Of a DNA stretch of 61,913 nucleotides, positions 5,502-46,798 are shown piece by piece. The notes below the pieces were generated by a model. That model was not told the origin of the DNA. It did not search any database and saw nothing but the letters and a program-made list of their open reading frames with translations. Both the position numbers and the translations under genes were made by a program. The stretch comes from Planctomycetota bacterium (lineage in GTDB: Bacteria; Planctomycetota; Phycisphaerae; WQYP01), in the NCBI GenBank assembly GCA_021785435.1, contig JAJYFE010000004.1:1-61913 (forward strand). Reading direction: 5' to 3'. Position 1 is the first letter of the stretch. Each line of letters starts with the position of its first letter.

Positions 5502-5627
5502 GGGTCACTCATTTTTCGGGGAGCGCGGCAGCAGGCGGTCCGCGCAGGCCACCGGCCTGCGCCGCGTGGTAGGAGCGCGCTTCGCCAGAATAAGGTCCGA
5601 CCTGGAAACTTGCGAACGGCGCAAGCG

Positions 5628-5643
5628 CCGGGGTTTATCCCGG
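5628..5643. repeat. REP-like hairpin CCGGGGTTTATCCCGG (same family as the copies around the RAYT gene at 42 kb)
   Basis: Stem CCGGG/CCCGG with a TTTAT loop. The flanking GGTGAACGGCGATACC resembles the copy at 42053 (GGTGAACCGCTATTCC). Confidence 0.7.
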
Positions 5644-5751
5644 TGAACGGCGATACCAGGATTTTCACACCAGACGAAACTTTTGAGAACCGCTCTAACG
5701 GGGGGCAAGGCGCCTCGGTTCACCGGTTCACCGGCTGGGGCAGTTTAACTT

Positions 5752-6425
5752 TTAGGTCATCTCCCGTAAGTGAGTTTTAAAGGAATGCTGGATTATCGCC
5801 CATTTCAGCATAGCTAAGAAATGGACCGCCGTTTTCTGCTACCGGGTGGCGATGCGCCGCGCGTGCTGGAGCCAGTCGATACGCCGTTCGATCCCATTTG
5901 CGCCGGCGATAAGTCGGCGCGTCGAACCGTGGGGGTGGGCCGGCCCACGCTCGTAGGGCCGGCATTTTTCGGGGATGACCACGCGGATGCCGCGGCGCCG
6001 CAATCAACGCTGCACCCGCGGAATAACCTGGTGCTTTGTCACCACTTGGCGTTCAGGTACCCCGGCTGCCGCCATGCACCGGGTCGCCGGGGGCGAGTCG
6101 CCCACGGCGACCTGAAGGCCAGTGCTTCGGGTTCGGTGGCGGATCCGGGGCTCTTTCGCCAACCAAAAATTTATCGCTTGACCAAGCCCTTCGGGGGTCT
6201 GCAGCAAGCGGTCGATCAGCCGGCCTGCCGCCACTGATGGAAGCGGTGGTACGCCGTCTTCCAGGGGCCCAAACGATCCGGTAGGTCCCGCCAGGGAGAA
6301 CCGGTGCAGAATCCAGAACCAGGCATGGAGGATGGTCCGGTGGTCCCGGTATGGCCGCCCCTGTCTCGATCACGGCAGTAACAACGGTTGGATCGGCCGC
6401 CACCGCCGGATAAAATGCGAATTTG
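5752..6425 (-). pseudogene. Decayed IS5-family (IS427-group-like, DUF4096 + DDE) transposase
   Basis: My minus-strand translation gives ...WRPIQPLLLP*SRQGRPYRDHRTILHAWFWILH, then a frameshift to TGSPWRDLPDRLGPWKTAYHRFHQWRQAG, and later ...RGIRVVIPEK.RPYERGP...ANGIERRIDWLQHARRIATR*QKTAVHFLAMLKWAIIQHSF. These are hallmark DUF4096 and C-terminal IS5 motifs. The reading frame is broken by in-frame TGA and TAG stops and by frame changes (track ORFs 5777..6007, 6004..6234 and 6053..6403 are its pieces). Confidence 0.7.
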
Positions 6426-27124: not shown

Positions 27125-27530
27125 CTATGTGGCGGGTGCCGGAAGGGCTCGGGCGCTGGCGCGGAAGGGGGCCGGGGCCGCTGGGCCGCGATGAGGCTTC
27201 CGGGATGGTCTAACAGGCACGCCGTGCCACAATGCGAGCACCGCTCGTAGAGCCGTGCCAATAGGTCGGCGAGGAGCAGGTCGATCGCGTTGTTGTGTTA
27301 CGAGCGTCTCCACGAGGAATGCCGCCGCGGCACCGTTGCGGCGCGGTTGGCGGATCGGTTGAACGCGGGGATCATCGCGTTGCAGTCGCTTGGTTGGCGC
27401 AGCAGCGTCCGCCGGTAAGGTTCCGTGGGCGCGGTGCCGTGGGTCATCTCCGCTCTCGGCCGAAGGCCCGTGTACCGCTGCACTTCGTACAGCGACAGCC
27501 TGGAAGCGGACCAGCAGTGGCCCGCCATTG
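27125..27530 (-). pseudogene. Decayed paralogue of the 34065..34817 gene (island-border remnant)
   Basis: The minus-strand reading ...PSDCNAMIPAF...RRS*HNNAIDLLLADLLARLYERCSHCGTACLLDHPGSLIAAQRPRPPSAPAPEP parallels ...ASDPCVTVGVS...GRRLADLLARLYERCSQGGEAGLLYWPGGLAAAPRPPSPFAPSPGP of the 250-aa protein at 34065..34817. It is interrupted by a TAA at 27295-27297. Confidence 0.45.
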
Positions 27531-30560: not shown

Positions 30561-31553
30561 TCAGCCGCCTTGAGGGCCGGCAGAGAGCGGGGGCGATTGG
30601 CCCGGCGGGATCGCTTCGGTGGCTGCGGCGCTGGGCGAAACAGGCGCGACAGTGACCTCGCTCTCCGCGCCCGGCCCTCGCGTTCCGGGTAGGGTGGATT
30701 CCACGTTGGAGTGGACGTAGCCCGTCAGGTTCTCGAATTTGGCGATGGTCTCCGCTATCTTCTTAAAGGGGACGACGATCGCCATGCCTGCATTTACATT
30801 TCCGCCGCCTGAACGGTCAGCGGCCGTTGTAGGGTCGACTTCATCGATGTCTACCGCTGCGGTGTCGAAGTGGCCGTGGATTAAGCCAAGCAGGAGGACG
30901 TTCGGTCCACCCGACTGAAACCGGAGATTGGCACCGAGCATCCGCACGGGGCCGAGGTTCAAAAACACCGGCGATCCGCTTAAGCCCCCGATCGAGCGGG
31001 CCTCAATCAGGTACGCGTCCATCGCCCCGAACGAAGGAGATACCAACACCTTGTCTTCGGGCATACACGCCAGGTTGCCTATTCTGACAACCGGCTCATT
31101 CTTCCGAGTCCCCGGATGGTAACGCAGCAGGCCTGTGACAAAAACCTCGTCGCCCAGCCCCACCTCGTTGGCTCTGAGCTTTTCTTCGTCGACGCACTGC
31201 GAATAAGGAAAAACAAGATGGTCGAGACCCTCGGGAATCCCCGCCCTCAAGATGGCCACGTCGACGGAGCCGTCGTCGGGATGGGAGAACCAGCCGGCGG
31301 CGTCGGTGGGAACCCATTTGGCCTGGCCGTCGGCGCAATTAACGCGGAGCAGGGGTTGGCCGTTACCCCGGTTTCGCACCCACTCGACCACATGCCTCGC
31401 CGTTACCGCGTAGACGGGATCCGCTCTTCTCCCGCCGGGCGTATCACGCCCGAGGAAGAACACGGAGCCCGCGAAACGGCGTTGCCCGCCGTCCTCGTAG
31501 CCGATAAAGGCAACGCACTTCCGGACCTCATCGGGAACAATCACGGGTCTCAC
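30561..31553 (-). CDS. Trypsin-like (S1/chymotrypsin-fold) serine peptidase
   Basis: Catalytic triad context: VYAVTARHVV (His), DVAIL (Asp), GGLSGSPVFL (Ser). GTG start at 31553. A C-terminal Pro/Ser-rich tail. Confidence 0.7.
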   Translation of the reverse strand: MRPVIVPDEVRKCVAFIGYEDGGQRRFAGSVFFLGRDTPGGRRADPVYAVTARHVVEWVRNRGNGQPLLRVNCADGQAKWVPTDAAGWFSHPDDGSVDVAILRAGIPEGLDHLVFPYSQCVDEEKLRANEVGLGDEVFVTGLLRYHPGTRKNEPVVRIGNLACMPEDKVLVSPSFGAMDAYLIEARSIGGLSGSPVFLNLGPVRMLGANLRFQSGGPNVLLLGLIHGHFDTAAVDIDEVDPTTAADRSGGGNVNAGMAIVVPFKKIAETIAKFENLTGYVHSNVESTLPGTRGPGAESEVTVAPVSPSAAATEAIPPGQSPPLSAGPQGG

Positions 31554-31559
31554 CTCATC

Positions 31560-31789
31560 TCAACCACCGCGCCGAAATTCCTCCAGCGTGGCATCCTTCA
31601 CTTCCTGCGCCACGATTGGGAAGGTGGACAGAATGTGGGCGAATTCTTCCTCGGTTAAGCCATACAGATGCGCGATGATCGCGTCCAATTCCGCCCGCAG
31701 TTTCAGCCGCTTCGCGGGATCGGTTACGCCGTCCTTGTGGCTTTTCAGACCCACCGACTTGGCCAGCTCATCAAATTCCGGCGTGGTGC
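31560..31789 (-). repeat. MTase 3-prime-end remnant V (direct repeat of 38388-38617)
   Basis: 31633-31789 matches 38461-38617 at 155/157 nt by my manual alignment. The distal 73 nt (31560-31632) are clearly more diverged. Encodes ...GLKSHKDGVTDPAKRLKLRAELDAIIAHLYGLTEEEFAHILSTFPIVAQEVKDATLEEFRRGG (track ORF 31560..31754). Confidence 0.9.
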
Positions 31790-31896: not shown

Positions 31897-32838
31897 CTAC
31901 CGAAACAGCGCCGTAACAGATCCGGTCATTCGCCAACGCGGGCGGTGCGCCACTTCTAACACTTGCTCCAAATTTGGCTTTCGATCCAGTGCCCGTCCGC
32001 GAATCGGTATGCCGCCGCGCTCGATGAAATGCGGATTCGCTTCCGCCGAGGGACCGGGCGATGCAAAATCAACCACAAATAACGGATGATGGCGTCTGAT
32101 CGCCTCATCGCCCGCCGCGAATGTGCCCCCCTCGTTTGCGGATTCCACCAGAATCATCCCGTCGGAAAGACCAATAATGGTGCGGTTGCGTTTCATGGCG
32201 TTGCGCGCGATCCAGGGGAGGCTCGGCGGGAATTGCGAAACAACCAGGTGCTTTCCCCGGCCCAGCACATCGGCAATCTCCTTCTTGACGCGGAAATGTC
32301 GGATGCCCTCGGCCACGACCATGATCGTCGCGCCACCGGCCTCCAGGGTGGCCCGGTGCGCCGCTAAATCCACGCCATGGGCGTAGCCGCTGACCACACA
32401 GATATTCTGGCGGGCCAGGGCCGCGGCAGCGTCGCGCGTGACCGCCAGGCCCTTGTCCGAAGCTTGGCGAGAGCCACAGAATCCCAACGCTGGCAGGTCA
32501 AAAAGTTCAGCCTCGCCTCTGAGGAAAAGAAAGGGTGGCGCCTCATCCCCCAGGATGGCCTTGAGGCGCGCCGGGTAGGCGTCATCTTCGATCCAGAGCA
32601 GCCGGACGCCGTGGAGTTGCAGGTTATCCCATAGCCGGGCCGCCGCGTCCCCTGATTTCCCGACGTTGGCGGCTGCCGGTTCCGAGACACCTAACACCTC
32701 CCTCAGGCGGGGCGGGTCCAAGCGAACGGCGTCGGCCGGGGAAATGCCTTCACCTGCGCAGTACCGGGCCAGGTGCCGCAGGGCCGCTTCCCCGACCCCT
32801 TTCGCCAGGATGAACTGTAACAGGGGAAGCGCGTTCAT
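31897..32838 (-). CDS. DprA/Smf-family (SLOG Rossmann) protein
   Basis: YPARLKAILGDEAPPFLFLRG...LGFCGSRQASDKGLAVTRDAAAALARQNICVVSGYAHGVDLAAHRATLEAGGATIMVVAEGI...RNRTIIGLSDGMILVESANEGGTFAAGDEA follows the DprA signature closely. The ATG is coupled by ATGA to the upstream PRTase gene. Confidence 0.85.
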   Translation of the reverse strand: MNALPLLQFILAKGVGEAALRHLARYCAGEGISPADAVRLDPPRLREVLGVSEPAAANVGKSGDAAARLWDNLQLHGVRLLWIEDDAYPARLKAILGDEAPPFLFLRGEAELFDLPALGFCGSRQASDKGLAVTRDAAAALARQNICVVSGYAHGVDLAAHRATLEAGGATIMVVAEGIRHFRVKKEIADVLGRGKHLVVSQFPPSLPWIARNAMKRNRTIIGLSDGMILVESANEGGTFAAGDEAIRRHHPLFVVDFASPGPSAEANPHFIERGGIPIRGRALDRKPNLEQVLEVAHRPRWRMTGSVTALFR

Positions 32839-33686
32839 TGGTTATCCGTGTCGCTCATTGATTTTACGCACACCAACCCGAAAACATATTTTGCCCCGAG
32901 GCTCTTCAAAAACTTAGCGCAACACCATAGCGTGACGCCGGACTGATATAGATCATCCACAACGGCCACCGTCCTGCCCCTTATGTCGGCATCGATTCGA
33001 ACGCACTGGCCGCGTTCGTATAACTCGCACCAGTGCTTCATCTTTTCCACGAAAGGCAAATTTTTCAGATAGGATTTTCCACAGCATAGGCTGCTTTGAA
33101 CAAGGGGAACGCCCTTGTCTTTCGCGACGCGCATTGCCAATTCTCTGCCGAAATTATACTTTTCCAGGTCGGATGGGACACCGGTGATCAGCAGATTGGT
33201 CTTTTCCTCGGGCGGTACGGGCAGGTAATCAAACGCCTCGACCATCGCCCTGCTCACAACGGAGCAATAGGCTTGGGACTGCCGGTATTTGGCCTGATAC
33301 AACGCCTCGCCAAACAATGTCCGCCTTTCCGAGTTTGGATCGTAGTTAAAAGACAGCCCCATGCAGAAATCCAGCTCTTGCGAAAAGCCGGGAGCGATGT
33401 GCCTGCTCAATCCGATCAGCACATATTCCTGGAATCTCTGTCTCCAGTTCTCGATCTGTTCAAGGTTTGCCTGGTTGAGTGCGCCGGCCGGAAACCAAAG
33501 GTATTTCATCTTGCCCCCCTTGGATACACGCCAGCCATTTGGGGCCAGCTTAGAGATTTGCGGGCAGTGGTAATCGAAAAGCCCCGGATAGGTGTCGCAG
33601 GAAACGAACAGGCTTATCGCACCATCGTCGTATTCGTTGAGATGACATTCGAGCTGTGACCGGCTGTGGGTGGTCCGTGGGATCAT
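32835..33686 (-). CDS. Phosphoribosyltransferase-domain protein
   Basis: C-terminal type-I PRTase PRPP loop RTVAVVDDLYQSGVTLW. The ATG at 33686 has GGAG 4 nt upstream. The N-terminal ~180 aa have no recognised domain. Confidence 0.7.
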   Translation of the reverse strand: MIPRTTHSRSQLECHLNEYDDGAISLFVSCDTYPGLFDYHCPQISKLAPNGWRVSKGGKMKYLWFPAGALNQANLEQIENWRQRFQEYVLIGLSRHIAPGFSQELDFCMGLSFNYDPNSERRTLFGEALYQAKYRQSQAYCSVVSRAMVEAFDYLPVPPEEKTNLLITGVPSDLEKYNFGRELAMRVAKDKGVPLVQSSLCCGKSYLKNLPFVEKMKHWCELYERGQCVRIDADIRGRTVAVVDDLYQSGVTLWCCAKFLKSLGAKYVFGLVCVKSMSDTDNQ

Positions 33687-33921
33687 TTTTCTCCACCTGC
33701 TGCCAGCACCGGCGGTGCGGAACAGTGTTCCACCGTTTGAGCCGGCTGCCGACCGGGCGTTGCCGGGCCGCGGGTCACACGCATCCGCAGCTGGGTGCCG
33801 CAATTATAAACCACATACGGCCAACGGTCATGCTTCAGGCGCATTATTCACATTTTTTCCCGGTCGAAGATATTCCCAACTCGCCGGGTAATTGTCCACC
33901 GGGGTAGGCCGGCGGCTCGCC

Positions 33922-34071
33922 TCAATTGGTGCGTTTGAAGTCCTCAAGCGTCGCCCGTTTCACTTCCTCTGGCACGATCGGAAACGTCCCCAATATGTGG
34001 GCGAATTCTTCCTCGGTTAAGCCGTACAGATACGCGATGATCGCGTCCAATTCCGCCCGCAGTTTCAGCCG
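33922..34071 (-). repeat. MTase 3-prime-end remnant IV
   Basis: 33971-34071 is 101/101 identical to 38437-38537 by my manual alignment. The distal tail 33922-33970 is diverged. Encodes LKLRAELDAIIAYLYGLTEEEFAHILGTFPIVPEEVKRATLEDFKRTN. Confidence 0.9.
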
Positions 34072-34817
34072 ACCAGCCCCGACAACGACAACTGCTGGAA
34101 GCCTTCGGCGTCGACGATCGCCACCGGAACGAACGCCTTCAGCGAAACCCACTCGCTAAGCGCACGCCGCGGGAGCCGGCCCGCCCGCAGCTGAATTTCC
34201 CCAAGCGTCCGGGGGGCCTGCCACTCTCCCCGGGCTTCGACGGGGTCGCCGGGTTGGTGCGATGCGGGCCCGGGCGATGGCGCGAAAGGGGACGGGGGCC
34301 GCGGGGCCGCGGCGAGGCCCCCAGGCCAATACAACAGGCCTGCCTCGCCGCCTTGCGAACACCGCTCGTAGAGCCGCGCCAGTAAATCAGCAAGGCGCCG
34401 GCCCGCATCCCGACAGTCATCCTCCATGGTTGCAGCAGGGGTGTCAGCCGACACGCCGACGGTCACGCACGGGTCGCTCGCGAGGCGAAGCTTCCCCTGC
34501 GCCAAGCCGTCGGGCGGGAACAGATAGGCCATCGTGGCGATCCCCCGAACCGCGATGTCTTCCCGGACCAGTTCGTCGCGCCAGCCTGGTCCGACGCCGG
34601 AGGGCTGCGCGGGCGCATCGATAAGCTGCCGGTAGTCCAAGGCGAACAGCGGGTTGGGCGCGCCGAGAAGGTGCAGCACGGCGTGGAACCCCCGGCTGCA
34701 CGGGGACCATAGCCGCGTCGGCGCGGCCGGGGTTGCGGCGAGTGCCTCGCGGAACGCGCTTTCCAGCGCCGTGCTCCACTGCTCGGGCGTACCCGCCCGC
34801 CTCCCCGCCTGGCTCAC
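34065..34817 (-). CDS. Hypothetical protein (third gene of the HipA-like module)
   Basis: 250-aa ORF starting 11 nt after the HIRAN-like gene. No recognised domain. Its TGA stop (34065-34067) lies inside remnant IV, in a different frame from the MTase tail. A decayed paralogue sits at 27125-27530. Confidence 0.5.
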   Translation of the reverse strand: MSQAGRRAGTPEQWSTALESAFREALAATPAAPTRLWSPCSRGFHAVLHLLGAPNPLFALDYRQLIDAPAQPSGVGPGWRDELVREDIAVRGIATMAYLFPPDGLAQGKLRLASDPCVTVGVSADTPAATMEDDCRDAGRRLADLLARLYERCSQGGEAGLLYWPGGLAAAPRPPSPFAPSPGPASHQPGDPVEARGEWQAPRTLGEIQLRAGRLPRRALSEWVSLKAFVPVAIVDAEGFQQLSLSGLVG

Positions 34818-34827
34818 CGACGTTCTC

Positions 34828-35601
34828 CTAAACGGCCCAGTCCCGTATTGAATTAAATTCCTCCCCGGTCATTGGATCGTGGCCCTCCGGCCACTGGCCC
34901 GTGAGTTCGATCAGGAATCGCTGGTGGGTAGGTGCACCGGGTGGGTTTCGTCTGACCAGGCGGGCTTGGGCGCCAGCGGCCCCGCCCGCCGCGGGGGCGA
35001 GGACTTCTGCCACGTAACGCGGCGCCCAGCCGACCACGTGTGCATCCCGCGGTCGCCCTGGCGACTCTTCGATCCGCAGTTCAACCGCCGGTTCCATTGC
35101 CGGGCCATCTCGGCGCACCGCCACGCGCAGCGGCTCATCGGCGCCAAGCTCGGCAAGCCGGGCTTGCGCGGCCTGCGTGGTGCGCCGCCAACCACGGAGG
35201 AAGAACCGGCACCGGAAACTTCGATCGGCCCCTGCTTCGAGCTTGGGAAATACCTCCAGATTGTCCGTCTGGCGCCGCCCGCCTGTTAGCGCCAGCAACG
35301 TTAAAGGGTCGGCCTCTTCGGGGCGCAGGTCCAGCAGCTTCAGGTACTCCGCATATTCCTCGCGCGTGGGGGAAAGGACCCGATTGCGAAAGAGGGGGAA
35401 TAACTCGTCCGCCTCGTAGCGCCACCCGAGGTACGGGAACGCCTCCAGCGGCCGCCACCCGGCCTCCTGTGCCGCCAGTTGGGCGCCCTGCGTGTACCAG
35501 AAGCAATAATGGCATGCTGCGGGATCGGCTTCGAGCCGGCCGATGGGGTACCAGCGCCGCATTTGCACCGGGCTCTGCCACGCCAGGAACAGGCTCGTCA
35601 T
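34828..35601 (-). CDS. HIRAN-like domain protein with conserved N-terminal WYPIGRL domain
   Basis: From the ATG at 35601 (ATGA overlap with the HipA-like stop): MTSLFLAWQSPVQMRRWYPIGRLE...YCFWYTQGA...ELFPLFRNRVLSPTREEYAEYLKLLDL...DPLTLLALTGGRRQTDNLEVFP, then FFLRGWRR...GADEPLRVAVRRDG...AVELRIE...HVVGWAPRYVAEVL. This resembles proteins I recall as annotated HIRAN domain-containing. Confidence 0.5.
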   Translation of the reverse strand: MTSLFLAWQSPVQMRRWYPIGRLEADPAACHYCFWYTQGAQLAAQEAGWRPLEAFPYLGWRYEADELFPLFRNRVLSPTREEYAEYLKLLDLRPEEADPLTLLALTGGRRQTDNLEVFPKLEAGADRSFRCRFFLRGWRRTTQAAQARLAELGADEPLRVAVRRDGPAMEPAVELRIEESPGRPRDAHVVGWAPRYVAEVLAPAAGGAAGAQARLVRRNPPGAPTHQRFLIELTGQWPEGHDPMTGEEFNSIRDWAV

Positions 35602-36542
35602 ACCTTGACCTTCCTCAACTCCGCCATTGTATAGCGCAGGACATCCCGACAGAAGTCCTTCTGAATAGCGGTCATGCACGTGTTGGGAACCCGATCGACT
35701 GGCAAGATCACGCGGGCTTCTTCGAGGGCCCGCAACTTTTCGAGCCATGGCTTCGCCAAGGCGGGGTCCTCCTGGGCGAGACGCCGCAACAGCGCCATTG
35801 GGCTGGGGCCGCACCGCGCGTGCGCGTCCCAGTAGATTCCGCCACGGCCTCTTTCCACGTATTGTCCGATGCGTCCGTGGCGTATCAACTCAAGGCGCCG
35901 GGCGTCGGTCAGTTCGCGCCCAAGGGAGGAAGCATGGTCGTAAGAAGGGGCCACGGAAATTTCGACGTCCACGGGACCATCCCGGCGGGTCTCCAGGATC
36001 GCCCAATTTTCGTGGTGGCGATCGGTATTGCCGATCCAAGCGTCGAACACGATCAGCCCCACCAGCTGCGCCAGATAGGGCCGGGCGCCGCTCTCGGGAA
36101 AGCGGGCTTCGACTGCCTTGCGAATGTTGGCCCAGCGGTGATCGGCCTGCCCGCGACGCTTGGCCTTATCGTAGCCCGTCACCCATTTCCCCAGGAGCTC
36201 GTTTCCATGGACAAGCTCGCCCAGCCGAATGTGATGCGAAAAGGGGTCATATTGATGGGGAATAAAGGACCGGGAGGCGGTTCCGACCACCCCCTGGTAG
36301 CGTGCCAACTCCACCCGCGCCACCGGCAGGCCGATCAGGGGCGCTAGTTCGGCGGCAATTTTCTCCGCCCAATGCTCGCCCGTTCCCGGCCGTGGGTACT
36401 TAAAAAGCCACCGGCGGGGGTCGCTGTCGACAGAAAACCAGAATTTGGTCTTGGTCCCAAACAACTCCGTGTCAAGCCGCTGGAAATCGTGCCGACCCTC
36501 CCGCAAGTCCCAAACGTCGTACTCACCGGGCTCGCCACTCAT
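35598..36542 (-). CDS. HipA-like Ser/Thr kinase domain protein
   Basis: Catalytic-loop motif DAWIGNTDRHHENWAIL (HipA_C-like). Upstream GTKTKFWF...LFKYPRPGTGEHWAEKIAAELA. No HipB-type HTH gene is adjacent. Confidence 0.7.
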   Translation of the reverse strand: MSGEPGEYDVWDLREGRHDFQRLDTELFGTKTKFWFSVDSDPRRWLFKYPRPGTGEHWAEKIAAELAPLIGLPVARVELARYQGVVGTASRSFIPHQYDPFSHHIRLGELVHGNELLGKWVTGYDKAKRRGQADHRWANIRKAVEARFPESGARPYLAQLVGLIVFDAWIGNTDRHHENWAILETRRDGPVDVEISVAPSYDHASSLGRELTDARRLELIRHGRIGQYVERGRGGIYWDAHARCGPSPMALLRRLAQEDPALAKPWLEKLRALEEARVILPVDRVPNTCMTAIQKDFCRDVLRYTMAELRKVKV

Positions 36543-36730
36543 GGGGGCTGCGCTCCCTTAAATCTGCGAAATTCCTCCATCGTCGTGTGTTTCACTTCCT
36601 GCGGCACGATCGGAAACGTCGCGAATATGTGCGCGAATTCCTCTTCGGCTAAGCTGTGCCAACGGGCGATAATGGCGTCGAGCCCGGCGCGGAGCCGGGG
36701 CCGCCCGAATCTTCCATCCCTTGGCGAGGC
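36539..36730 (-). repeat. MTase 3-prime-end remnant III (diverged)
   Basis: My translation gives RDGRFGRPRLRAGLDAIIARWHSLAEEEFAHIFATFPIVPQEVKHTTMEEFRRFKGAQPP*, against the MTase tail KDGVTDPAKRLKLRAELDAIIAYLYGLTEEEFAHILGTFPIVPQEIKDATLAEFTRHV. Its frame ends in a TGA that overlaps the ATG of the HipA-like gene. Confidence 0.7.
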
Positions 36731-37671
36731 TGTAATGGGATGGCCCCACCTGGAGCCAAAGCCATGACCTGCTGTTTTATTAATCTGGCGCCCTCGTGGT
36801 TCTCAATGATTTTGAATGCGGCGCTGTTCATGAGGGCGTGCATGTAGCAATGATGAACGGTTAGCACCAAATCCTGGAGTTGCTGGTCCTCTTCAATCAG
36901 GACGACTTTCAGGCCCATCTTTATGCACTCGTCGGCGTGGATATGCCTGCTGTGGGCCTTGTGGCTGCGGTAGTCGGCGAGCCTTCTGGCTATCTTCGAC
37001 GCTTTGGCATCCGCGTCGGGCTCACCGGCGAACATGACTTTCGACAGCTGCTCACGTACGAAGCCATTGGACCAGTCGATGGCGTTGGAGCACTGCCCCA
37101 GAAAGGTGGGATGATATTTTCCGATAATAGGCTGCCAGACCGCGGCCCTGGCGGGGTCGGATTTAATTTCCTTGACCGCCTGCTTGAATTCCCGTATCAC
37201 ACCCTGGGCGGGAACTCCACGTACCTGTGGGTCAATAGGACCGAGATTAGACTGCTTGCCCATCAATATTTCCCTGCACGAGCAAGCCATGACCGTACCC
37301 GCCGACATGGCGATTTGCGGCACGATAGCGCGAATGTTGCGGTCGAACATTTTTTGCAGGTAGTCAACGATGGACTGGGTGGACGCAATATCACCCCCCG
37401 GCGTGTGCAGGATGAGATCTAGCCCCTGGCTCCGATCGAGCTTATGCACGGCCATCATGAAGCCGTTTTTGTCTTCATCGTTTATCTCCGCGCCGACGAT
37501 CTGCGGCTTGGAAAGCCAGCCCGAATAATAGGCAATAATGTTACGTGTCGTGCGCTGATGAAGCTGGCCAAGGTACTTTTTTCGAACCGAGTCCAAAGCC
37601 TGCTGGGCCATCGCCTGGTGGCTGAGGATTTCTTGATTAATCTCGTTTTGGACATCGCCCCAATTCGGCAT
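36649..37671 (-). CDS. SDH-family ClpP-fold serine protease (SppA/ClpP-like)
   Basis: LDLILHTPGGDIASTQSIVDYLQKMFDRNIRAIVPQIAMSAGTVMACSCREILMGKQSNLGPIDPQ matches the serine dehydrogenase proteinase family pattern. The last ~27 codons are read from remnant III in a different frame, so the native C-terminus may be replaced. Confidence 0.7.
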   Translation of the reverse strand: MPNWGDVQNEINQEILSHQAMAQQALDSVRKKYLGQLHQRTTRNIIAYYSGWLSKPQIVGAEINDEDKNGFMMAVHKLDRSQGLDLILHTPGGDIASTQSIVDYLQKMFDRNIRAIVPQIAMSAGTVMACSCREILMGKQSNLGPIDPQVRGVPAQGVIREFKQAVKEIKSDPARAAVWQPIIGKYHPTFLGQCSNAIDWSNGFVREQLSKVMFAGEPDADAKASKIARRLADYRSHKAHSRHIHADECIKMGLKVVLIEEDQQLQDLVLTVHHCYMHALMNSAAFKIIENHEGARLIKQQVMALAPGGAIPLQPRQGMEDSGGPGSAPGSTPLSPVGTA

Positions 37672-38019
37672 ACGACCCTCACCTCGCTGGCGCGGGCCAC
37701 GGCGTAGTGGTTGTTGTGATGGTGGGCACCGCGGGGAACGGCCAGGGCTGCTCGAGCGAGTAACTGTCCCCGGGGGAAACCGCCGGCGCGGTTATCCCGG
37801 CGCTCCGGGAGAGATAGCGCCGATAAAGAAGAGCCAATTTCGCGGCCTCCGATCCCGCCCTGTGGTATGCGGGACCAACTCGCCGCTTCCTCCGGTGTCC
37901 AGGTTGTTTGCCCGACCGTCCCATTATTATCTCCTTTCTCGGTGAGTTGATTCACCAATCAGTTTAGCCGCTACGGGACAGGCGTCAAATAGCCCGCGAT
38001 GCGCAGTGGCGCATCCGCG

Positions 38020-38130
38020 ACTTAAATTCCGCCATCGCCGCGTCGTCCACCCCCTGCGGCACAATGGGAAATGTCCCCCCAACATGTGCGCGAACTCTGC
38101 TTCGGTTAAGACGTACAAATGGGCGGTGCT
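38020..38130 (-). repeat. MTase 3-prime-end remnant II (diverged, frameshifted)
   Basis: Two track ORFs carry its halves: ...AHLYVLTEAEFAHMLGG (37927..38292) and GGTFPIVPQGVDDAAMAEFKSRMRH (37985..38176). One extra C in gtcccccc causes the frame change. Confidence 0.6.
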
Positions 38131-38286
38131 GGGGTGGGACAATTTTTCGGGGGTGGAATCCCCGCTGATAGTCCACCGCCAGTTCTCGAACGCGGCCTCC
38201 CGTAGCCGGCCATGTCCCGGCCGTTCAGTCGCCTGGGCGACCTGGCGGAGCGATGCGGGTACGCGCTTTGACCGCGGCGCCGATGG

Positions 38287-38362
38287 GGGCATCGGCGGCT
38301 ACATGGCCGATGAGGGCATCGGCGGCTACATGGCCGATGAGGGCATCGGCGGCTACATGGCC
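38287..38362. repeat. 27-bp tandem repeat, 2.8 copies, each unit a hairpin
   Basis: GGGCATCGGCGGCTACATGGCCGATGA at 38287-38313 and 38314-38340, plus a 22-nt partial copy at 38341-38362. Stems CATCGGC/GCCGATG. Lies 25 nt downstream of the MTase stop codon. Confidence 0.9.
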
Positions 38363-38387
38363 CCGGGGCGCGGGGGTATGCGGCAGG

Positions 38388-41300
38388 TTAAACGTGCCGG
38401 GTAAATTCCGCCAACGTGGCATCCTTGATTTCCTGCGGCACGATCGGAAACGTCCCCAATATGTGGGCGAATTCTTCCTCGGTTAAGCCGTACAGATACG
38501 CGATGATCGCGTCCAATTCCGCCCGCAGTTTCAGCCGCTTCGCGGGATCGGTTACGCCGTCCTTGTGGCTTTTCAGACCCACCGACTTGGCCAGCTCATC
38601 AAATTCCGGCGTGGTGCAGATCAGCCGCGCGGCACGTTCCACAATCGGTGCGAAGGCCGGGTCTTTCTCGGTCAGGCGCGGGACGGGCAGTTGGTAGACG
38701 TAGAAGAAGTTCACGTTGGCCGAGACTCGCTGGCGAATGATGTAGTCCAACGCCAAGGCGTCGAGGATGGCGGCAGCCCACAGGCGGACAGGGCCATGCG
38801 CGAGCCAAACGCCGTCCGCAGCGGCGAACTCGCCCGCCTGGAAACTGTTGGCGCAAAACGACGGCGGGGCGACCGTTGTTACCAGCGTCCGCTGGTCCGT
38901 GTTTCGTGCGATGTTCCTGAACCCCAGCCGGTAATCCTGATAATCCAATTTCTGGCCCGTGTCCGGCGTGCGGCCCAGGATTCTTGCCCGGCCCTTCTTT
39001 TCATCCACCCAATAGCGCGGCGGGGCCAGCTGATGATCGAACTGCCAGATCATTTTGCCTTCATACAGCGGCAATTTTCCTTTGCCCGGACTGGTCTCAA
39101 ACAAATCGCTGTCGTTCGTCATGTTGAGCTCCTGGGCGAACCGTACGTTCCAATTGCCTTGGATTTTTTCGCCCAGCAGCGGGAATTTCAGCATCTTTTC
39201 CGCGATCTGCACATCCAGATCGCACTTGAATTCCATGATGGAAAGCGAATCCGGCGAAAGCCGCCGCACCAGATCAACGGCTATCTCCAGGCCTCCCTGC
39301 CGGGGAAAACCCTCCAGTTCGGCCACATCGTGGCGCATGAACGCGGCAGGAAATTCCACCGTCTGGCCGCCCTTTTGAAAGGTCAAAACGACGAACTTGA
39401 AACTACGGTGCACGCCCTCAAAGATTTCCTTGCGATTCTCAAAACCAAACAGGCCAGTGATGTGGGTTTCTTTAAACAGCATTTCCCGCAACTGCTTGCT
39501 GCCCAAATCGGTATAAATGCCGGAGGGAATCACAATACCGCAAAGCCCGCCGGGGCGCAGCAGGTTGAAGCACTGTTCGGTGAACAACTTGTATAGGTTA
39601 ATCTTCGAAGCCGGGGTGCGCCCGCTGGCGTCGGTTGACAGCTGGTTTGGGTATTGGGCGGAGAGCTTAAAATACCTCGACGGGTGGGGAAACTCGCTGG
39701 AGTATGCAAGCCACGCCTCCCGCACTCTGCGATCTTCCATTATCGCGGCGCGCTGGGCCACCCAGTCCTCGATGCGGAGGCTCTTCTTGGTAATTGAGGG
39801 AATGTATTCTTGGAAAAATTCTTTCTCGTCGGTCTGGAAGACCTCCCACGGCGGATTGGTGATGATGGCGTCGAAGCCGCCGTTTTTATTTAGCACCCGG
39901 TCGAATTCAAAGCCCCAATGAAACGGTTTCAGTCGCTGGATATCGGCCAGGCCCAGCGGTCGCTTCTTCGGCCGGCCCTGAACCTTTTTCACCCCATCCC
40001 ACGTCGCCTGCTCGAACTTGATCCCCAGCCGCTCGAACTCGCCGAGCAGCAGGTCATCGAGCACGGCGGCGCAGGCGCGCTTGAGGGAATCGATGTTGTT
40101 GCGCAGGGCGGTTAAATCGTCGGCGTAGGTAGCTGTCCGGCGATAGTTGTCAATCCGCCGATTTTTGTCTTGCAGAATTTCCTGGTATGTCCGCTGGCGG
40201 AACAGCTGCCCCTGTTTTTGTTCAAACGATTTATCATCCACCCGCATCAGGCCGATGAGCGAATTGCCGGGCAGAATGTTAAAGTCGATATTCGGCAGCG
40301 GCTCGAGCTGATCGACGGTTTCGGCGGAGGAACCCAGCGCCAGAAACAACCGCAGGCGGGCGATTTCCACGGCCTCTTCCATCAAATCCACGCCGAAAAG
40401 ATTATCCGTAATGATGCATTTCTTGATGAAGTAGTCGATGTTGGAGTGCTTTTTTTCGATGTCGGCCAGCCAGGCGGAAAGCTCGGGATCATGCAGAAAT
40501 TTAATCTGGCCGATGATGGGAGAATAAATGCCGATCAGCGTATTCATGGCGGCCACCAGAAAGGCCCCTGATCCGCAGGCCGGATCCAGCAGTGACAGAT
40601 TCGGCAAAACATCATGGATCAGCTTGTGACACAGCGGGGCATCGAGATCAATCAGCAGATCGGCCACCGACTCATAACGGCGGGTTTTTACCCCCGCCAG
40701 GGTCGGCACGCCGGGGGACGTGTTGGCGGCGTCGAGAATCAGGCGGTGGATGGTCCGTTCGCAGAGATATTCCGTGATTTCCGGGCGGGTGTAATAGGCG
40801 CCGAAGGCTTTCTGGTTGATATATTGCTCAAAGATGTAGCCGAGAACGTGCGGGCTGATTTCGCGGTCATTTTCGCCGGGCGCGTCGTTAAGATTCCAGG
40901 AATAGGAGGCGAACAGCTGGAAAAGTTTATCGAAGAAGGCGTCAGGAATGGCGATATTCTGGTTTTCGGTTTCGATGCGGTGCGGCAGAAACAGGCCGCC
41001 GTTGAGGTAGCGGATGTTGCCGAGCTCGGTACGGGCGGCGGGCGAGCGTTTTTCCGGCGGTTTGGCGAAGCCTTCAAAGAAAAGCAGTTGCAGAAAATCG
41101 CGGTAAAAGCGTTCGGGGCCCTGGCGGCGGGAGGCCTGCAGCTTACGCTGCAGGTAGTCGATATCGCCGTCACGGGCTTGGGCGTCCCGGTAGTCGAGAA
41201 ACCCCTTGCGCTGCAGGAAATAGATGAACATCAGGCGGTTTAAGAGAATGGAGGCGTACCAGCGGCGATCGTGGTCCGTGGGTATGCCCTGGATCAGCTC

Positions 41301-41939
41301 CACCAAGTTGTCGTGGATACCCTCGAATTCCCTGAAAAAGCGTTTGGTGACCCGTTGGACATCCAGCGCCGCCTGGAGTCGCTGCGTAACTTCGGTCAGT
41401 TTGATGCGTCCATCGGAATCAAATTCCGAGATGTCAAAATGGATGGCGCCCAATTTGCTGATGAACAGATCGCCGGGCTGGCCGGCGGCGAAGAGATGCT
41501 CGCGCGGCACGGTTTTGCCATTTTCACGCTTGACCCAGCGCCAGAGGCTTTGGGTGCCGTTGGCGTCAACGAAAATCAGGAGGCATTCATACTGCAGCTG
41601 GGAGATTCCCTTATGGATGGCGGCGCGGGTTGGGGCGTCGGGTATGGCGGCGGATTCAACTTGATAAACGCCCACGCCGGCCAGATCGGCAATATGGCGG
41701 CGGGTAAGCTGAAGGCCATCGATGGCCATGGGAATCCCGTCGCGGCGGCCGGGGGGCGGATTCGACCAGCCCAAGTGTTCGATGAACAGCTCGCCGAATT
41801 TAAATTGGCGCAGGCATTCGCGCACGGCGGGAAAATTCAACCGCGCGGCGGCATTGGGCCGGGCATGAAGATTCTCCGTGCCCGGGGCGAGTTCGCGGTG
41901 GAGGGTAGACATGACGGCAATTATGGCCGAGGTGCGCAC
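38388..41939 (-). CDS. Eco57I/PglX-like gamma-class N6-adenine DNA methyltransferase, type IIG-like large protein
   Basis: Motif X AFGAYYTRPEIT, motif I LLDPACGSGAFLV, motif IV ITNPPWEVF, the N-terminal block ILLNRLMFIYFLQRKGFLD, and a long C-terminal TRD-like region ending LYGLTEEEFAHILGTFPIV. The track start is GTG at 41939; an alternative ATG is at 41912. Confidence 0.85.
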   Translation of the reverse strand: MRTSAIIAVMSTLHRELAPGTENLHARPNAAARLNFPAVRECLRQFKFGELFIEHLGWSNPPPGRRDGIPMAIDGLQLTRRHIADLAGVGVYQVESAAIPDAPTRAAIHKGISQLQYECLLIFVDANGTQSLWRWVKRENGKTVPREHLFAAGQPGDLFISKLGAIHFDISEFDSDGRIKLTEVTQRLQAALDVQRVTKRFFREFEGIHDNLVELIQGIPTDHDRRWYASILLNRLMFIYFLQRKGFLDYRDAQARDGDIDYLQRKLQASRRQGPERFYRDFLQLLFFEGFAKPPEKRSPAARTELGNIRYLNGGLFLPHRIETENQNIAIPDAFFDKLFQLFASYSWNLNDAPGENDREISPHVLGYIFEQYINQKAFGAYYTRPEITEYLCERTIHRLILDAANTSPGVPTLAGVKTRRYESVADLLIDLDAPLCHKLIHDVLPNLSLLDPACGSGAFLVAAMNTLIGIYSPIIGQIKFLHDPELSAWLADIEKKHSNIDYFIKKCIITDNLFGVDLMEEAVEIARLRLFLALGSSAETVDQLEPLPNIDFNILPGNSLIGLMRVDDKSFEQKQGQLFRQRTYQEILQDKNRRIDNYRRTATYADDLTALRNNIDSLKRACAAVLDDLLLGEFERLGIKFEQATWDGVKKVQGRPKKRPLGLADIQRLKPFHWGFEFDRVLNKNGGFDAIITNPPWEVFQTDEKEFFQEYIPSITKKSLRIEDWVAQRAAIMEDRRVREAWLAYSSEFPHPSRYFKLSAQYPNQLSTDASGRTPASKINLYKLFTEQCFNLLRPGGLCGIVIPSGIYTDLGSKQLREMLFKETHITGLFGFENRKEIFEGVHRSFKFVVLTFQKGGQTVEFPAAFMRHDVAELEGFPRQGGLEIAVDLVRRLSPDSLSIMEFKCDLDVQIAEKMLKFPLLGEKIQGNWNVRFAQELNMTNDSDLFETSPGKGKLPLYEGKMIWQFDHQLAPPRYWVDEKKGRARILGRTPDTGQKLDYQDYRLGFRNIARNTDQRTLVTTVAPPSFCANSFQAGEFAAADGVWLAHGPVRLWAAAILDALALDYIIRQRVSANVNFFYVYQLPVPRLTEKDPAFAPIVERAARLICTTPEFDELAKSVGLKSHKDGVTDPAKRLKLRAELDAIIAYLYGLTEEEFAHILGTFPIVPQEIKDATLAEFTRHV

Positions 41940-42182: not shown

Positions 42183-42728
42183 CTATTTCCGGGGGATCAC
42201 CCGCATGACGACAATCTCGCAAAGCATGCCGCTCTGGTTGTGGATATACCGATCCGCCGCGGCAATCGCCGCCTGGTCATGCAGGTAGCGATCACTGCCG
42301 CCCCGGGTCCACCAACGGCGCGGCGCTCCGGCGGCTTCGCTCAAGGCGGCGCTGCTTACGCCCTTGATCACACGCCGCACGGCGGGGCCGTCAGCGGGAC
42401 AGTTCGTTATGAGGCTGTGGATATGATTGGCCATGCACGCGGCGCGGAGGATAACCCAGTCGCGTTCGACGGCGGCCTGGCGGATAGCCTCGGCGGCGAC
42501 GCGGGATTCCGCTTGCGTCAACCAAACTGTGACGTGCTCTTGAAATCTCCTGGCGGCGGCGAGGGTGGCCGGATCATCCTGACCGCACGGCGTGCCGCGC
42601 TGGTTCCGCTTTCGCTCGTATGCTCCGCCAGGCAACAGCGTGTTGGAAACATAGCCGCGTGGATCACCAGGAAGCCAGGTGCCGTAGGTGGTCCAAGTGA
42701 TGAACAGGGCGAAAGGCGATACGGGCAT
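42183..42728 (-). CDS. REP-associated tyrosine transposase-like protein (IS200/IS605 Y1 HUH family)
   Basis: FITWTTYGTWLPGDPRGYV N-terminal block, HUH motif MANHIHSLI, and catalytic Tyr context RYIHNQ. Flanked on both sides by REP hairpins. I chose the ATG at 42728; the track's GTG at 42749 lies inside a REP. Confidence 0.7.
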   Translation of the reverse strand: MPVSPFALFITWTTYGTWLPGDPRGYVSNTLLPGGAYERKRNQRGTPCGQDDPATLAAARRFQEHVTVWLTQAESRVAAEAIRQAAVERDWVILRAACMANHIHSLITNCPADGPAVRRVIKGVSSAALSEAAGAPRRWWTRGGSDRYLHDQAAIAAADRYIHNQSGMLCEIVVMRVIPRK

Positions 42729-42748
42729 GGGCGCTCCGTCGGATGACA

Positions 42749-42769
42749 CCGCCGGGATAAACCCGGCGG
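42749..42769. repeat. REP hairpin, inverted orientation (CCGCCGGG-ATAAA-CCCGGCGG)
   Basis: Same stem as 41964 with the loop reverse-complemented. Immediately upstream of the RAYT gene. Confidence 0.85.
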
Positions 42770-43127: not shown

Positions 43128-43784
43128 CTACAGTTCCGGCGCATGGTGGGTCAGGTGCTTGAAGATGTGCACCGCTAAGTGTCCGAAGTTCCCTTGCATC
43201 GCTTGCTTCATAATGAAAGTGTAATCGGAATGATCCGGGCGCTGACGGACCCTAAATTGCGGCGGTACGCCAAACCGCAATAGGCCCCAAGCCCACAGCA
43301 GACGGGACAGCCGGCCGTTCCCATTGATAAAAGGGTGCACCTGTATAAACCGCCCGATCATCGTGCCGAGGATAATGGCCAATCTCTTGGCGCGTTCCTG
43401 TGGTGACAGCTCCGGCCAGTCGAGCTCCAGTGCAACGGTGTATCGGCGCAGGTGATCGAACAGCCGCTCCATCTCGGAAACCACGGTTTGGTACGGTGCG
43501 CCGGGGGTTCCTTCCACCCGGACATCTGTTTGCAGGCAAGGGCGTAGCGGATCAATTTGCCGATAGTTTCCGGCGTAATAGTCGAGTGGGACGTGGTGTG
43601 TGAACAGGGTGCGGTGCCAGTCACGGCAGGCCGGCGAATCGACGATTTTTCGCTTGGCGGCCGCCGCAGCCGCTCGATAGGCCGCGGCGACGGAGGCGCG
43701 GAAAGTTCCTTCCCTGGTCTCGGGGCCGTCCGAAGACCACTCCGGACAATTACCGGTGTAGGGCCTGGTCATCGTCATCCGCAA
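43128..43784 (-). CDS. Fic/DOC family protein
   Basis: Canonical Fic motif HPFINGNGRLSRLL. Overlaps the upstream small gene by about 35 nt. Confidence 0.85.
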   Translation of the reverse strand: MRMTMTRPYTGNCPEWSSDGPETREGTFRASVAAAYRAAAAAAKRKIVDSPACRDWHRTLFTHHVPLDYYAGNYRQIDPLRPCLQTDVRVEGTPGAPYQTVVSEMERLFDHLRRYTVALELDWPELSPQERAKRLAIILGTMIGRFIQVHPFINGNGRLSRLLWAWGLLRFGVPPQFRVRQRPDHSDYTFIMKQAMQGNFGHLAVHIFKHLTHHAPEL

Positions 43785-45092: not shown

Positions 45093-45620
45093 TCACTCCA
45101 ACCGGAACCCTAAGCGCTCGCGTGCACTTATCGGGGGATCGAGGCTCGCGTTAAGCTTGATACCCACCGCGCGCACAAAATGGTGATCGCCGATGCAGGC
45201 GATATTCAACTTCGCGCAGACCTCCGGAATGCCGTAGCGATCGGGGCCGCGGTTCTTGACGGTTTCCCGCGTCACCACCGTGGCCCCTGCTTCCCACGCG
45301 GAGGCGATCACCCACGGATCAGCCAGGTCGCGGCCCTTTCGCGTGTCGACAAGGCGCGGGTAGCCGAGGAGAATTTCCCGCATCCGCCTTTGCATCGGCT
45401 CGCTCAGCGGCTCGAATAACCCCCTCGTGCCATTGGCCCATTTGAAAAGGCCATCTTCCCTTTTCTCCAGTTCACGCCGAACTTCTTCCGGGCAAAAGAT
45501 GATCCCCTTACCGGCGAGATCGCGGAGGATGTCCCAATAGTCCGGGCACAGATCAGGGGCGTAATATCCCGTCCACGGGCGGATCAGAGCGTTTGTATCG
45601 AGGCAATAGCGCGTGTTCAA
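45093..45620 (-). CDS. DUF4411 PIN-like nuclease
   Basis: RYCLDTNALIRPWTGYYAPDLCPDYWDILRDLAGKGIIFCPEEVRRELEKREDGLFKWA fits the DUF4411 pattern. The TTG start overlaps the stop of the ImmA/IrrE gene (TTGA). Confidence 0.65.
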   Translation of the reverse strand: MNTRYCLDTNALIRPWTGYYAPDLCPDYWDILRDLAGKGIIFCPEEVRRELEKREDGLFKWANGTRGLFEPLSEPMQRRMREILLGYPRLVDTRKGRDLADPWVIASAWEAGATVVTRETVKNRGPDRYGIPEVCAKLNIACIGDHHFVRAVGIKLNASLDPPISARERLGFRLE

Positions 45621-46798
45621 CGGACGCCCCCGGACACGCCCACGCGCTGGAGAAGCTGTGCCATTCTCGGAAACAGGTTGACCTTCAGATCAAGAAGGTC
45701 GGACGCCTCGGTCGCCGTGGCGTAGTCATCGTAGTACGCCCGCAGCACATCCTCCGTGAACGCACGCCCGTTATATGCAAGCCTCAGCGTGAAATAGCTG
45801 GGGCTGCCTTCACGTCGCGGCCGGCCCGCCCGCTGCGCCCATCTCTGCGCCAAGCTTTGATGTAACCGCTCGTAATCGGATGAGGAAATCGAGCGCCGCT
45901 CGAGCAGCATGCGCGCGATGACCTCCTCGCTGACCCTAAGCCGATCGGAGAGGTGCGCGATCAGCTCGGGGCGGGACAAGGCACGCGCCCGACCCCGTTC
46001 GCCCTCGAAGGCCTCTGGCGCCACCAGCAGGCCGGCGGCGGTGCGGTTGCAGAATGTCTCTATCCGTGCCGCGTCGCCCAGCGCCTCGCCGCCGGTCAGG
46101 GCAAGGTTCGATACACCTGATTGGCCCAGCCAGATGTGCGCCAATTCATGGGCCAACGTGAACAGCTGTCCCGCTACGGCGTCTTTCCCATTGATCCATA
46201 TGATCGGCGCCCATGGATCGCTGAGCGCCAGTCCGCGCGCCTCCGGCAGCTCGATCCCGGGGTCGCGGCGAACGCAGACCCCCGCTTCTTCCGTGCGGGC
46301 GACCCAGTAGCGCAGCGCCTCCGCCTGCGTCCGGCGGTTCCGGTGCCAGAATATATCTACACGCAGGGTGGACCGAATCGCGCGGGACAAGGCCGCGGCA
46401 TCCCGGTCTTGCCCCGAGCTGACGAAGGCCAGCTCGGATTCCCCGGTGTCCCGGCGGTATTCCGCAAGCCACTTCTGCCGGTAGTCCAGAGAGCGCGCCA
46501 AGAAAAGAAATTCCGGGCTGAAATGTCGTGGCACGTCGCCGGGAAGCCGGCGAAAATCACGCGGGGTGGCAAAATCCAGCGGCGGCTTGGACACATAGAA
46601 TACCGCCAGCGGCCGCCTATAGACCTGTGCCGCTTTGCGCGCCTGCGCCAGGGACGGATGGTCGGTCCCCGCCTCCCAGTGATCCAGCGCTTCCGACGTG
46701 ACGCCTATGCACTCGGCCGCCACCGTCTTGTCGTAGCCCGCCTGCTCGCGCGCCCATTTGAGAACTGCGGGCGTTATTAGGGCTTGGATGTGTGACAC
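45617..46798 (-). CDS. XRE-HTH + ImmA/IrrE zinc metallopeptidase fusion
   Basis: N-terminal HTH (LKWAREQAGYDKTVAAECIGVTSEALDHWEAG) and the HExxH motif in FTLAHELAHIWLG. Confidence 0.8.
   Translation of the reverse strand: MSHIQALITPAVLKWAREQAGYDKTVAAECIGVTSEALDHWEAGTDHPSLAQARKAAQVYRRPLAVFYVSKPPLDFATPRDFRRLPGDVPRHFSPEFLFLARSLDYRQKWLAEYRRDTGESELAFVSSGQDRDAAALSRAIRSTLRVDIFWHRNRRTQAEALRYWVARTEEAGVCVRRDPGIELPEARGLALSDPWAPIIWINGKDAVAGQLFTLAHELAHIWLGQSGVSNLALTGGEALGDAARIETFCNRTAAGLLVAPEAFEGERGRARALSRPELIAHLSDRLRVSEEVIARMLLERRSISSSDYERLHQSLAQRWAQRAGRPRREGSPSYFTLRLAYNGRAFTEDVLRAYYDDYATATEASDLLDLKVNLFPRMAQLLQRVGVSGGVR

Follow-up and report, generated by a model that had tools for sequence, protein, structure and literature searches.

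What restrains a HipA-like kinase that is encoded without a HipB antitoxin, and which of the genes beside it belong to the same functional unit? Both questions are raised by a cassette at positions 34065 to 36542 of a 61,913-nt stretch of DNA from a Planctomycetota bacterium (assembly GCA_021785435.1, contig JAJYFE010000004.1, forward strand; the whole stretch is called the window here). An earlier account that was made from the letters alone, without database searches (the sequence-only reading), had described the cassette as a three-gene module with an unusual toxin-control logic. As set out below, the unit is probably a two-gene kinase toxin module of the hipIN type, identical in kind to the defence candidate PDC-M03, and constitutes one cassette of a defence island.

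The cassette contains three open reading frames (ORFs) of 314, 257, and 250 amino acids (aa), all on the minus strand (Table 1). The stop codon of the kinase gene and the start codon of the partner gene overlap in the tetranucleotide ATGA. The TAG of the partner gene is followed after 10 nt by the GTG of the third ORF (p3), with an AGGAG motif placed 7 nt before that GTG. Neither the ORF list nor a Pfam scan yielded a helix-turn-helix (HTH) or HipB-like gene in the cassette. The sequence-only reading had thus given the sizes of the second and third proteins, the ATGA coupling, and the absence of an XRE/HipB gene correctly, and the gap in front of the third gene as 11 nt, one more than measured. 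With no HTH gene present and a kinase of 314 aa as opposed to the approximately 440 aa of full-length HipA, a canonical hipBA system is ruled out.

The first gene is predicted to encode a short HipA-family Ser/Thr kinase in which every family-conserved catalytic residue is intact. Pfam HipA_C (PF07804) matches residues 28-207 with 43.4 bits (E 4.1e-11; curated cut-off 30.5), which bears out the HipA-like kinase that the sequence-only reading had recognized by its NTDRHHENW motif. Furthermore, the PADLOC model PDC-M03A aligns from position 12 to 301 of its 302 positions (E 3.3e-81), and phrog_8728 is matched with an E value of 4.7e-47. The window kinase was aligned with 64 kinases from related loci, and at 57 of the 59 columns that are conserved in at least 90% of these 65 sequences it carries the consensus residue. 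The conserved motifs that are kept include the Gly-rich loop G29-T-K-x-K33 (G-(S/T)-K-x-K in the family), K48, the catalytic N172-T-D174-R-H-H-x-N179-W180 within the loop GNTDRHHENW (residues 171-180), and the Mg-binding D202 of A-P-x-x-D202. The position of the Gly-rich loop near the N-terminus (residues 29-33) goes together with a short kinase core that lacks the N-subdomain 1 of HipA. The sole relative by sequence with a solved structure is the HipA-like CtkA, which gives a weak match across the same motifs.

The partner protein is less easily recognized. Pfam matched no family to it, and the Pfam HIRAN model gave no match even at E<=10. The PADLOC model PDC-M03B, on the other hand, covers the whole protein (E 2.5e-62, model positions 1-242 of 245), and more than 1350 relatives were found in a large protein collection, many of them with a precomputed match to PF08797 (HIRAN). 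When the Pfam HIRAN model was scanned singly against 26 aligned homologues, it was found in 25 of them at residues ~130-227. An AlphaFold2 model of the partner, calculated from 27 aligned sequences, consists of two domains (mean predicted local distance difference test score, pLDDT, 89.6; predicted template modelling score, pTM, 0.85). The top solved structure in a Foldseek search with this model is 7vkb_B (probability 1.0, TM score 0.74), followed by 3k2y, which we take to be a bacterial HIRAN-fold protein (probability 0.99, TM score 0.65-0.69), and by Rad5 lower on the list. Sequence profiles from alignments A1 and A4, searched for a link of the HIRAN half to solved structures, retrieved nothing meaningful from the PDB. 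The C-terminal half is therefore predicted to have the HIRAN fold on the basis of the model together with the Pfam matches in homologues, in agreement with what had been proposed for this half before. The N-terminal half, which contains the WYPIGRL motif and had been left unnamed, is the part that resembles 7vkb_B, that is, the 102-residue antitoxin HipS in the HipT-HipS complex of Legionella, where the bound HipS reshapes the P-loop and prevents ATP from binding (PMC9325769). By this analogy, the HipS-like domain is likely the kinase-neutralizing part of the partner.

A kinase gene followed by a gene for a HipS-like and HIRAN-containing protein has been described before. The hipIN family was defined by Gerdes, Baerentsen, and Brodersen in 2021 (mBio, PMC8262856): HipI kinases are short (279-321 aa) and have no N-subdomain 1, and hipIN lacks HipB. 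The same authors proposed that the HipS-like domain neutralizes the kinase and that the HIRAN domain recognizes the DNA ends of invading phages or of replication intermediates, whereupon the kinase becomes active and causes abortive infection (PMC8262856). The domain make-up found in the window, a 314-aa kinase with a downstream gene for a protein with a HipS-like N-domain, is that of hipIN. The two systems share the short core kinase, the coupled downstream gene for a HipS-like domain joined to a HIRAN domain (in the window copy one that is predicted from its fold), the absence of HipB, and the proposed mechanism; the cassette in the window, likened to hipIN by its architecture, differs in its replaced HIRAN signature residues, in an extra orphan ORF, and in its position behind a type IIG methylase gene. 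PADLOC lists the pair as PDC-M03, one of 145 untested PDC candidates, a set collected from genes that lie inside BREX, DISARM, and type I restriction-modification (RM) loci (Payne et al., bioRxiv 10.1101/2024.01.29.577857). Both window proteins match the A and B models of PDC-M03, which is not discussed by name in that work, end to end; the host system here is type IIG, not type I, BREX, or DISARM. No experimental test of hipIN or PDC-M03 was found in the searchable literature. The claim of an unusual control logic, in which a DNA-end sensor is linked to a HipA-type kinase, was thus anticipated in print: the pairing was named in 2021 and flagged as a defence candidate in 2024, and this copy adds a member to the family, not a principle.

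The family is widespread. A scan of one genome per species for relatives of the partner protein gave 378 loci, and the neighbourhood counts reported here refer to the best 80 of them. Immediately ahead of the partner gene, 76 of the 80 loci have a kinase match (three of these matches are fragments), which often overlaps the start of the partner gene; the two genes are conserved neighbours. In ~24 of the 80 loci the partner gene is followed at a distance of 0-27 nt by a type I hsdR gene, and hsdM and hsdS genes can be found upstream of the pair, for example in Nitrospira moscoviensis NSP M-1 (L036) and at the loci L005, L058, and L066. The pair is conserved across many phyla, often within operons of the order hsdM-hsdS-kinase-hipN-hsdR. 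The two genes form a conserved unit that is frequently found inside RM operons, an embedding seen here independently of the way in which the PDC candidates were collected. With a presence in 378 or more species-representative genomes, over 1300 protein clusters, and a tight link to RM operons, the family is worth testing. As a separate observation, an extra ORF without a Pfam match stands between hsdS and the kinase gene in L036 (4096-4734, 212 aa) and in L058 (3946-4995, 349 aa).

Abortive-infection effectors that are embedded in RM loci are known from PrrC and RloC, which reside in type I hsd operons. Like them, the pair considered here would be a latent toxin gene nested in an RM operon, an arrangement that points to restriction being backed by a second, coupled defence; the toxin differs, being a kinase here and an anticodon nuclease there, and the window gives no evidence of physical coupling to the restriction enzyme. 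Among the relatives of the HipA family, HipL kinases unite the same three domains (kinase-HipS-HIRAN) in one chain, which are distributed over two coupled genes here. Moreover, PHROGs contains families for both window proteins, and one of these, phrog_26212 (547 aa), matches residues 45-310 of the kinase and residues 2-121 of HipN. It is a fusion of kinase and HipS-like domain, a HipL-like form in phage or prophage genomes. Such fusions speak for a physical contact of the kinase with the HipS-like domain, and phrog_26212 also means that phages carry such modules too. HipBST of E. coli O127 and Legionella pneumophila (PMC9325769, PMC10627512) shares the split of HipA into a kinase core and a separate HipS-fold protein, which neutralizes the kinase by blocking ATP binding. 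HipBST has the gene order hipB-hipS-hipT with an autoregulatory HTH protein HipB, whereas in the window the kinase gene comes first, there is no HTH protein, and the HipS-like domain is fused to HIRAN. Identity with HipBST was rejected, as the third ORF lies downstream and has no HTH or other family match and no relatives.

Taken by analogy with these systems, the module could work in three steps. The HipS-like domain would bind the kinase and keep ATP out, in the manner of HipS acting on HipT. Release of the kinase would follow when the HIRAN domain reads a signal; in typical members this signal would be free DNA 3' ends, such as those of phage genomes, replication intermediates, or restriction products. 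The released kinase would phosphorylate an essential translation factor, for example an aminoacyl-tRNA synthetase, leading to a growth stop and thereby to abortive infection. Since restriction itself makes DNA ends, we speculate that the embedding in RM loci points to a back-up layer tied to restriction.

The copy in the window departs from its family in precisely the domain that would read the signal. Comparison with 116 homologues gave 87 columns with at least 90% conservation, and the partner deviates at 11 of them, the highest number among all compared sequences (median 2). Ten of the 11 deviations fall into the HIRAN half (37 conserved columns) and one into the HipS-like half (50 conserved columns). 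The substitutions in the HIRAN half are I121L, H136R, E163R, N165D, N166G, T169M, Q174E, Y187A, L197V, and D200V, through which the NNP motif has become DGP, and a 7-residue insertion is located in the same half. Where a consensus HipN such as that of Nitrospira moscoviensis NSP M-1 (L036) reads ELNNPAT, the window protein reads RRDGPAM. The replacement of these 10 conserved residues explains why the Pfam HIRAN model fails on the window partner. At the same time, the hipN gene is 100% identical between the window and the strain L083, while the kinase alleles of the two differ, which argues for a fixed, diverged sensor domain and not for obvious decay. With its HIRAN signature residues replaced, the trigger may be altered or weakened in this copy. 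The window module can therefore be regarded as a natural variant in which putative DNA-end-binding residues are exchanged and the kinase and the HipS-like domain are intact, a useful contrast for binding and activation assays.

Several points weigh against a DNA-end-triggered hipIN module. Toxicity, neutralization, target, and trigger are all attributed by analogy with HipA, HipT, and HipS. HipA itself has the HipS-like fold as its N-subdomain and is not inhibited by it, so that the domain could complete the kinase instead of blocking it. As the HIRAN domain of this copy fails Pfam and has lost the NNP motif, DNA-end binding may not apply to it. Finally, the kinase alleles of the window and of L083 differ in 23 codons (18 non-synonymous, 5 synonymous) and by a 9-nt indel, and this non-synonymous excess could reflect relaxed constraint, though the differences are clustered, for instance as single-nucleotide polymorphisms at 35868-35900, and look like a recombined or diversifying patch.

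Toxin-antitoxin pairs commonly stabilize islands. The cassette might accordingly be a plain addiction module that protects the island by post-segregational killing and senses no phage, with a HIRAN domain that is decaying towards a HipS-only antitoxin as in hipJS. The loss of conserved residues in the HIRAN half and their retention in the HipS-like half would suit such a course, and hipJS has been suggested to have arisen from hipIN through loss of HIRAN (PMC8262856). We nevertheless consider this explanation unlikely: the strong conservation of HIRAN throughout the family, with 33 invariant columns in alignment A4, indicates a function under selection, RM operons regularly contain members of the family, and a hipN gene that is identical in two strains with differing kinase alleles is unlike decay.

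A further alternative concerns the third ORF, which would act as a functional partner in a genuine three-component system, for example as a new regulator or a sensor making up for the divergence of the HIRAN domain. Its close spacing behind hipN on the same strand and the AGGAG motif before its start fit this idea, as do its coding-like GC content by codon position (.745/.586/.817), a frame that has stayed open in the window and in the two further strains L081 and L083, and the occurrence of the unusual HIRAN divergence in exactly this lineage. There is also a precedent, since HipA-HIRAN clusters of Actinobacteria are accompanied by a third gene, the DEDD-family dinuclease diDNase (PMC11706625). 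The window cassette was not accepted as a HipA-HIRAN-diDNase cluster, p3 being without a match in Pfam, NCBIfam, PADLOC, and PHROGs. Searches of 5.8 billion protein clusters (word-indexed) and of 1.84 billion representative proteins (HMMER, exhaustive) returned two relatives only, a 99% identical copy and the protein P0002, which shares residues 118-250. The ORF is absent from all 80 related loci that hold the pair and otherwise occurs in contigs of the same population (L081, L083). In another strain (L082), only its 3' two-thirds (aa 118-250) are present together with the adjoining repeat, next to unrelated DNA of higher AT content. At 71.6%, the GC content of p3 exceeds the 62% of the kinase gene and the ~62% of the window, and p3 takes its stop codon from the opening bases of the methylase-3'-end copy that comes next, that is, from a recombination junction. 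The codon changes (2 synonymous and 3 non-synonymous against L083, 2 and 5 against L082, noted as 4 and 8 over the two comparisons) give a ratio of non-synonymous to synonymous change (pN/pS) of ~1, albeit from too few substitutions, and a single-sequence AlphaFold2 model is uninformative (mean pLDDT 38). A three-component system is improbable on these grounds, and the claim of a three-gene module, in which p3 is orphan, missing from 80 of 80 other loci, and partly detached from the kinase in L082, was not upheld. In our reading, p3 is a passenger confined to this lineage, or else a truncated relic, which lies at the edge of the cassette and outside the conserved module. The possibility that it is a frameshifted continuation of a methylase remnant was dismissed, as the resemblance to the methylase is confined to the last 49 aa downstream and lies in a different frame.

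The sequence-only reading had also reported a decayed paralogue of p3 at 27125-27530, taken to show that this type of module had been at the locus before. A related stretch does exist there, of 136 nt at 27145-27280 (tblastn 47% identity over 62 aa, E 0.003); the rest of the reported span did not stand. Nothing similar to the kinase or the partner was found near 27 kb, and an earlier presence of the module is therefore not shown by this fragment.

That the pair is an inactive remnant, a decaying relic of an older RM locus, is very unlikely: gene remnants do flank the cassette, the kinase of its closest relative is broken by an internal deletion, and non-synonymous changes outnumber synonymous ones between the kinase alleles, but the two genes retain full-length, coupled frames, the kinase has kept all of its catalytic residues and almost all of the conserved ones, hipN shows no change in a second strain, and the module is present at full depth in several of the metagenomes (mine drainage, sediment) which, as DNA runs only, hold the locus.

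The surroundings of the probable hipIN module suggest how it came to its place. An intact type IIG RM gene lies upstream, and four further copies of the last 100-220 nt of this gene, in the same orientation, separate the cassettes that follow it.

Table 1. Features of the defence island and of the kinase cassette, listed in the direction of transcription (window coordinates).
Feature	Coordinates	Strand	Details
HTH + M78-peptidase protein	45617-46798	minus	RmrA/CapP-like
Fic/DOC protein	43128-43784	minus	PDC-S04/SoFic-like
Type IIG RM gene, intact	38388..41939	minus	1183 aa; Pfam Eco57I 4e-23, MmeI_Mtase; PADLOC REase_MTase_IIG 6e-110
Native methylase 3' end	38391-38747	minus	sequence repeated in four further copies downstream
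Methylase-3'-end copy	38024-38124	minus	degenerate; precedes SDH-family protease cassette
SDH-family ClpP-like serine protease	36649-37671	minus	Pfam SDH_protease 6e-19; phrog_11747 1.5e-96
Methylase-3'-end remnant	36539..36703	minus	reads ...RLRAGLDAIIARWHSLAEEEFAHIFATFPIVPQEVKHTTMEEFRRFKGAQPP, then stop; upstream cassette edge; tblastn 66% over 47 aa, E 4e-16
Kinase gene (hipI-type)	35598-36542	minus	314 aa, ATG start
Partner gene (hipN-type)	34828-35601	minus	257 aa counted from ATG
HipS-like domain of partner, aa ~1-120	35242..35601	minus	Foldseek 7vkb_B; 1/50 family-conserved columns deviates
Predicted HIRAN-fold domain of partner, aa ~125-240, with tail and stop	34828..35229	minus	Foldseek 3k2y; Pfam HIRAN in homologues
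Orphan ORF p3	34065..34817	minus	250 aa, GTG start, 71.6% GC; rich in Ala, Pro, Gly
Methylase-3'-end copy	33931..34077	minus	86% over 49 aa, E 6e-24; downstream edge of kinase cassette, upstream edge of PRTase/DprA cassette
PRTase-like + DprA-like cassette	31897-33803	minus	PADLOC: PsyrT 9e-9, ShosT 3e-5; PsyrA 2e-56, ShosA 3e-40
Methylase-3'-end copy	31569-31787	minus	precedes PDC-S45-like gene
PDC-S45-like gene	30561-31553	minus	starts 13 nt after methylase-3'-end copy
p3-related fragment	27145..27280	minus	136 nt, 76% identical to p3 nt 430-565 (blastn within window, E 3e-22)

The repeat copy ahead of the kinase gene maps to 36563-36703 and still reads as a C-terminal peptide. The TGA of this methylase remnant overlaps the ATG of the kinase gene, from which it follows that the kinase was once translationally coupled to a full methylase gene. 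The differences between the copies are concentrated at codon position 3 (for example 13/5/25 over the three positions), which indicates that the copies diverged inside working genes and did not arise by local duplication. In two of them, ~100 nt of identity to the resident gene give way to sharp divergence; in the copy that ends the kinase cassette, nt 6-106 are identical to the native gene, followed by 17 differences in the last 40 nt. Such sharp breakpoints between identity and divergence are what crossovers leave behind.

Similar arrangements are found elsewhere. The closest relative of the partner (57% identity) is encoded in a Phycisphaerales genome bin (L001), where a methylase-3'-end stub stands directly before the kinase gene and no methylase gene is present near the pair, which is located between a sensor histidine kinase gene and housekeeping genes. 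The kinase of this locus (5391-6000) has lost its catalytic core through an internal deletion or frameshift, and the hipN gene beside it is intact. Among 80 metagenome loci with the C-terminal motif of the methylase, two contain multiple copies with cassettes in between, namely L088 with three copies and a cassette of Mrr_N and GIY-YIG genes, and L132 with two copies. Furthermore, contigs from two metagenomes contain joints between repeat copies, leading from 34038 to 38602 (X2) and from 36583 to 33960 (X3). These joints fit the loss or rearrangement of cassettes, and they could also be assembly artefacts, as the repeats share more than 31 identical bases.

The most economical reading suggested by these observations is that cassettes travel with the 3' stub of the methylase gene that they once followed, and that homologous recombination within the conserved stub stacks or removes them. 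The setting would thus illustrate the movement of modules, each carrying a stub of the methylase gene that formerly preceded it. A more far-reaching version, which we put forward as a tentative and rather doubtful proposal, would see the methylase 3' end as a recombination anchor for the capture, stacking, and loss of defence cassettes without a dedicated integrase, hipIN as a further defence layer coupled to RM, with a HIRAN domain that senses the DNA ends which restriction produces or leaves unprocessed, and the diverged HIRAN domain together with the orphan ORF as a re-tuned sensor.

The other cassettes are likewise of a defensive kind or candidates for it. The PRTase and DprA genes are predicted from their PADLOC matches to form a PsyrTA/Shosta-type defence pair. 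The SDH-family protease, which makes up a cassette of one gene and for which PADLOC gave no match, has a reading frame that runs into the next methylase-3'-end copy. A scan for promoters and terminators between 31.4 and 38.6 kb gave counts no better than those of shuffled sequences. Just past the stop codon of the type IIG gene, at 38279-38362, there is a 27-nt tandem repeat (3.1 copies, 98% matches), whose unit holds the short palindrome GCCGATG...CATCGGC and at which metagenome contigs display depth spikes and small indels. An ORF resembling an IS200/Y1 transposase is located at 42183-42749, and the 27-nt repeat may be a REP-like element.

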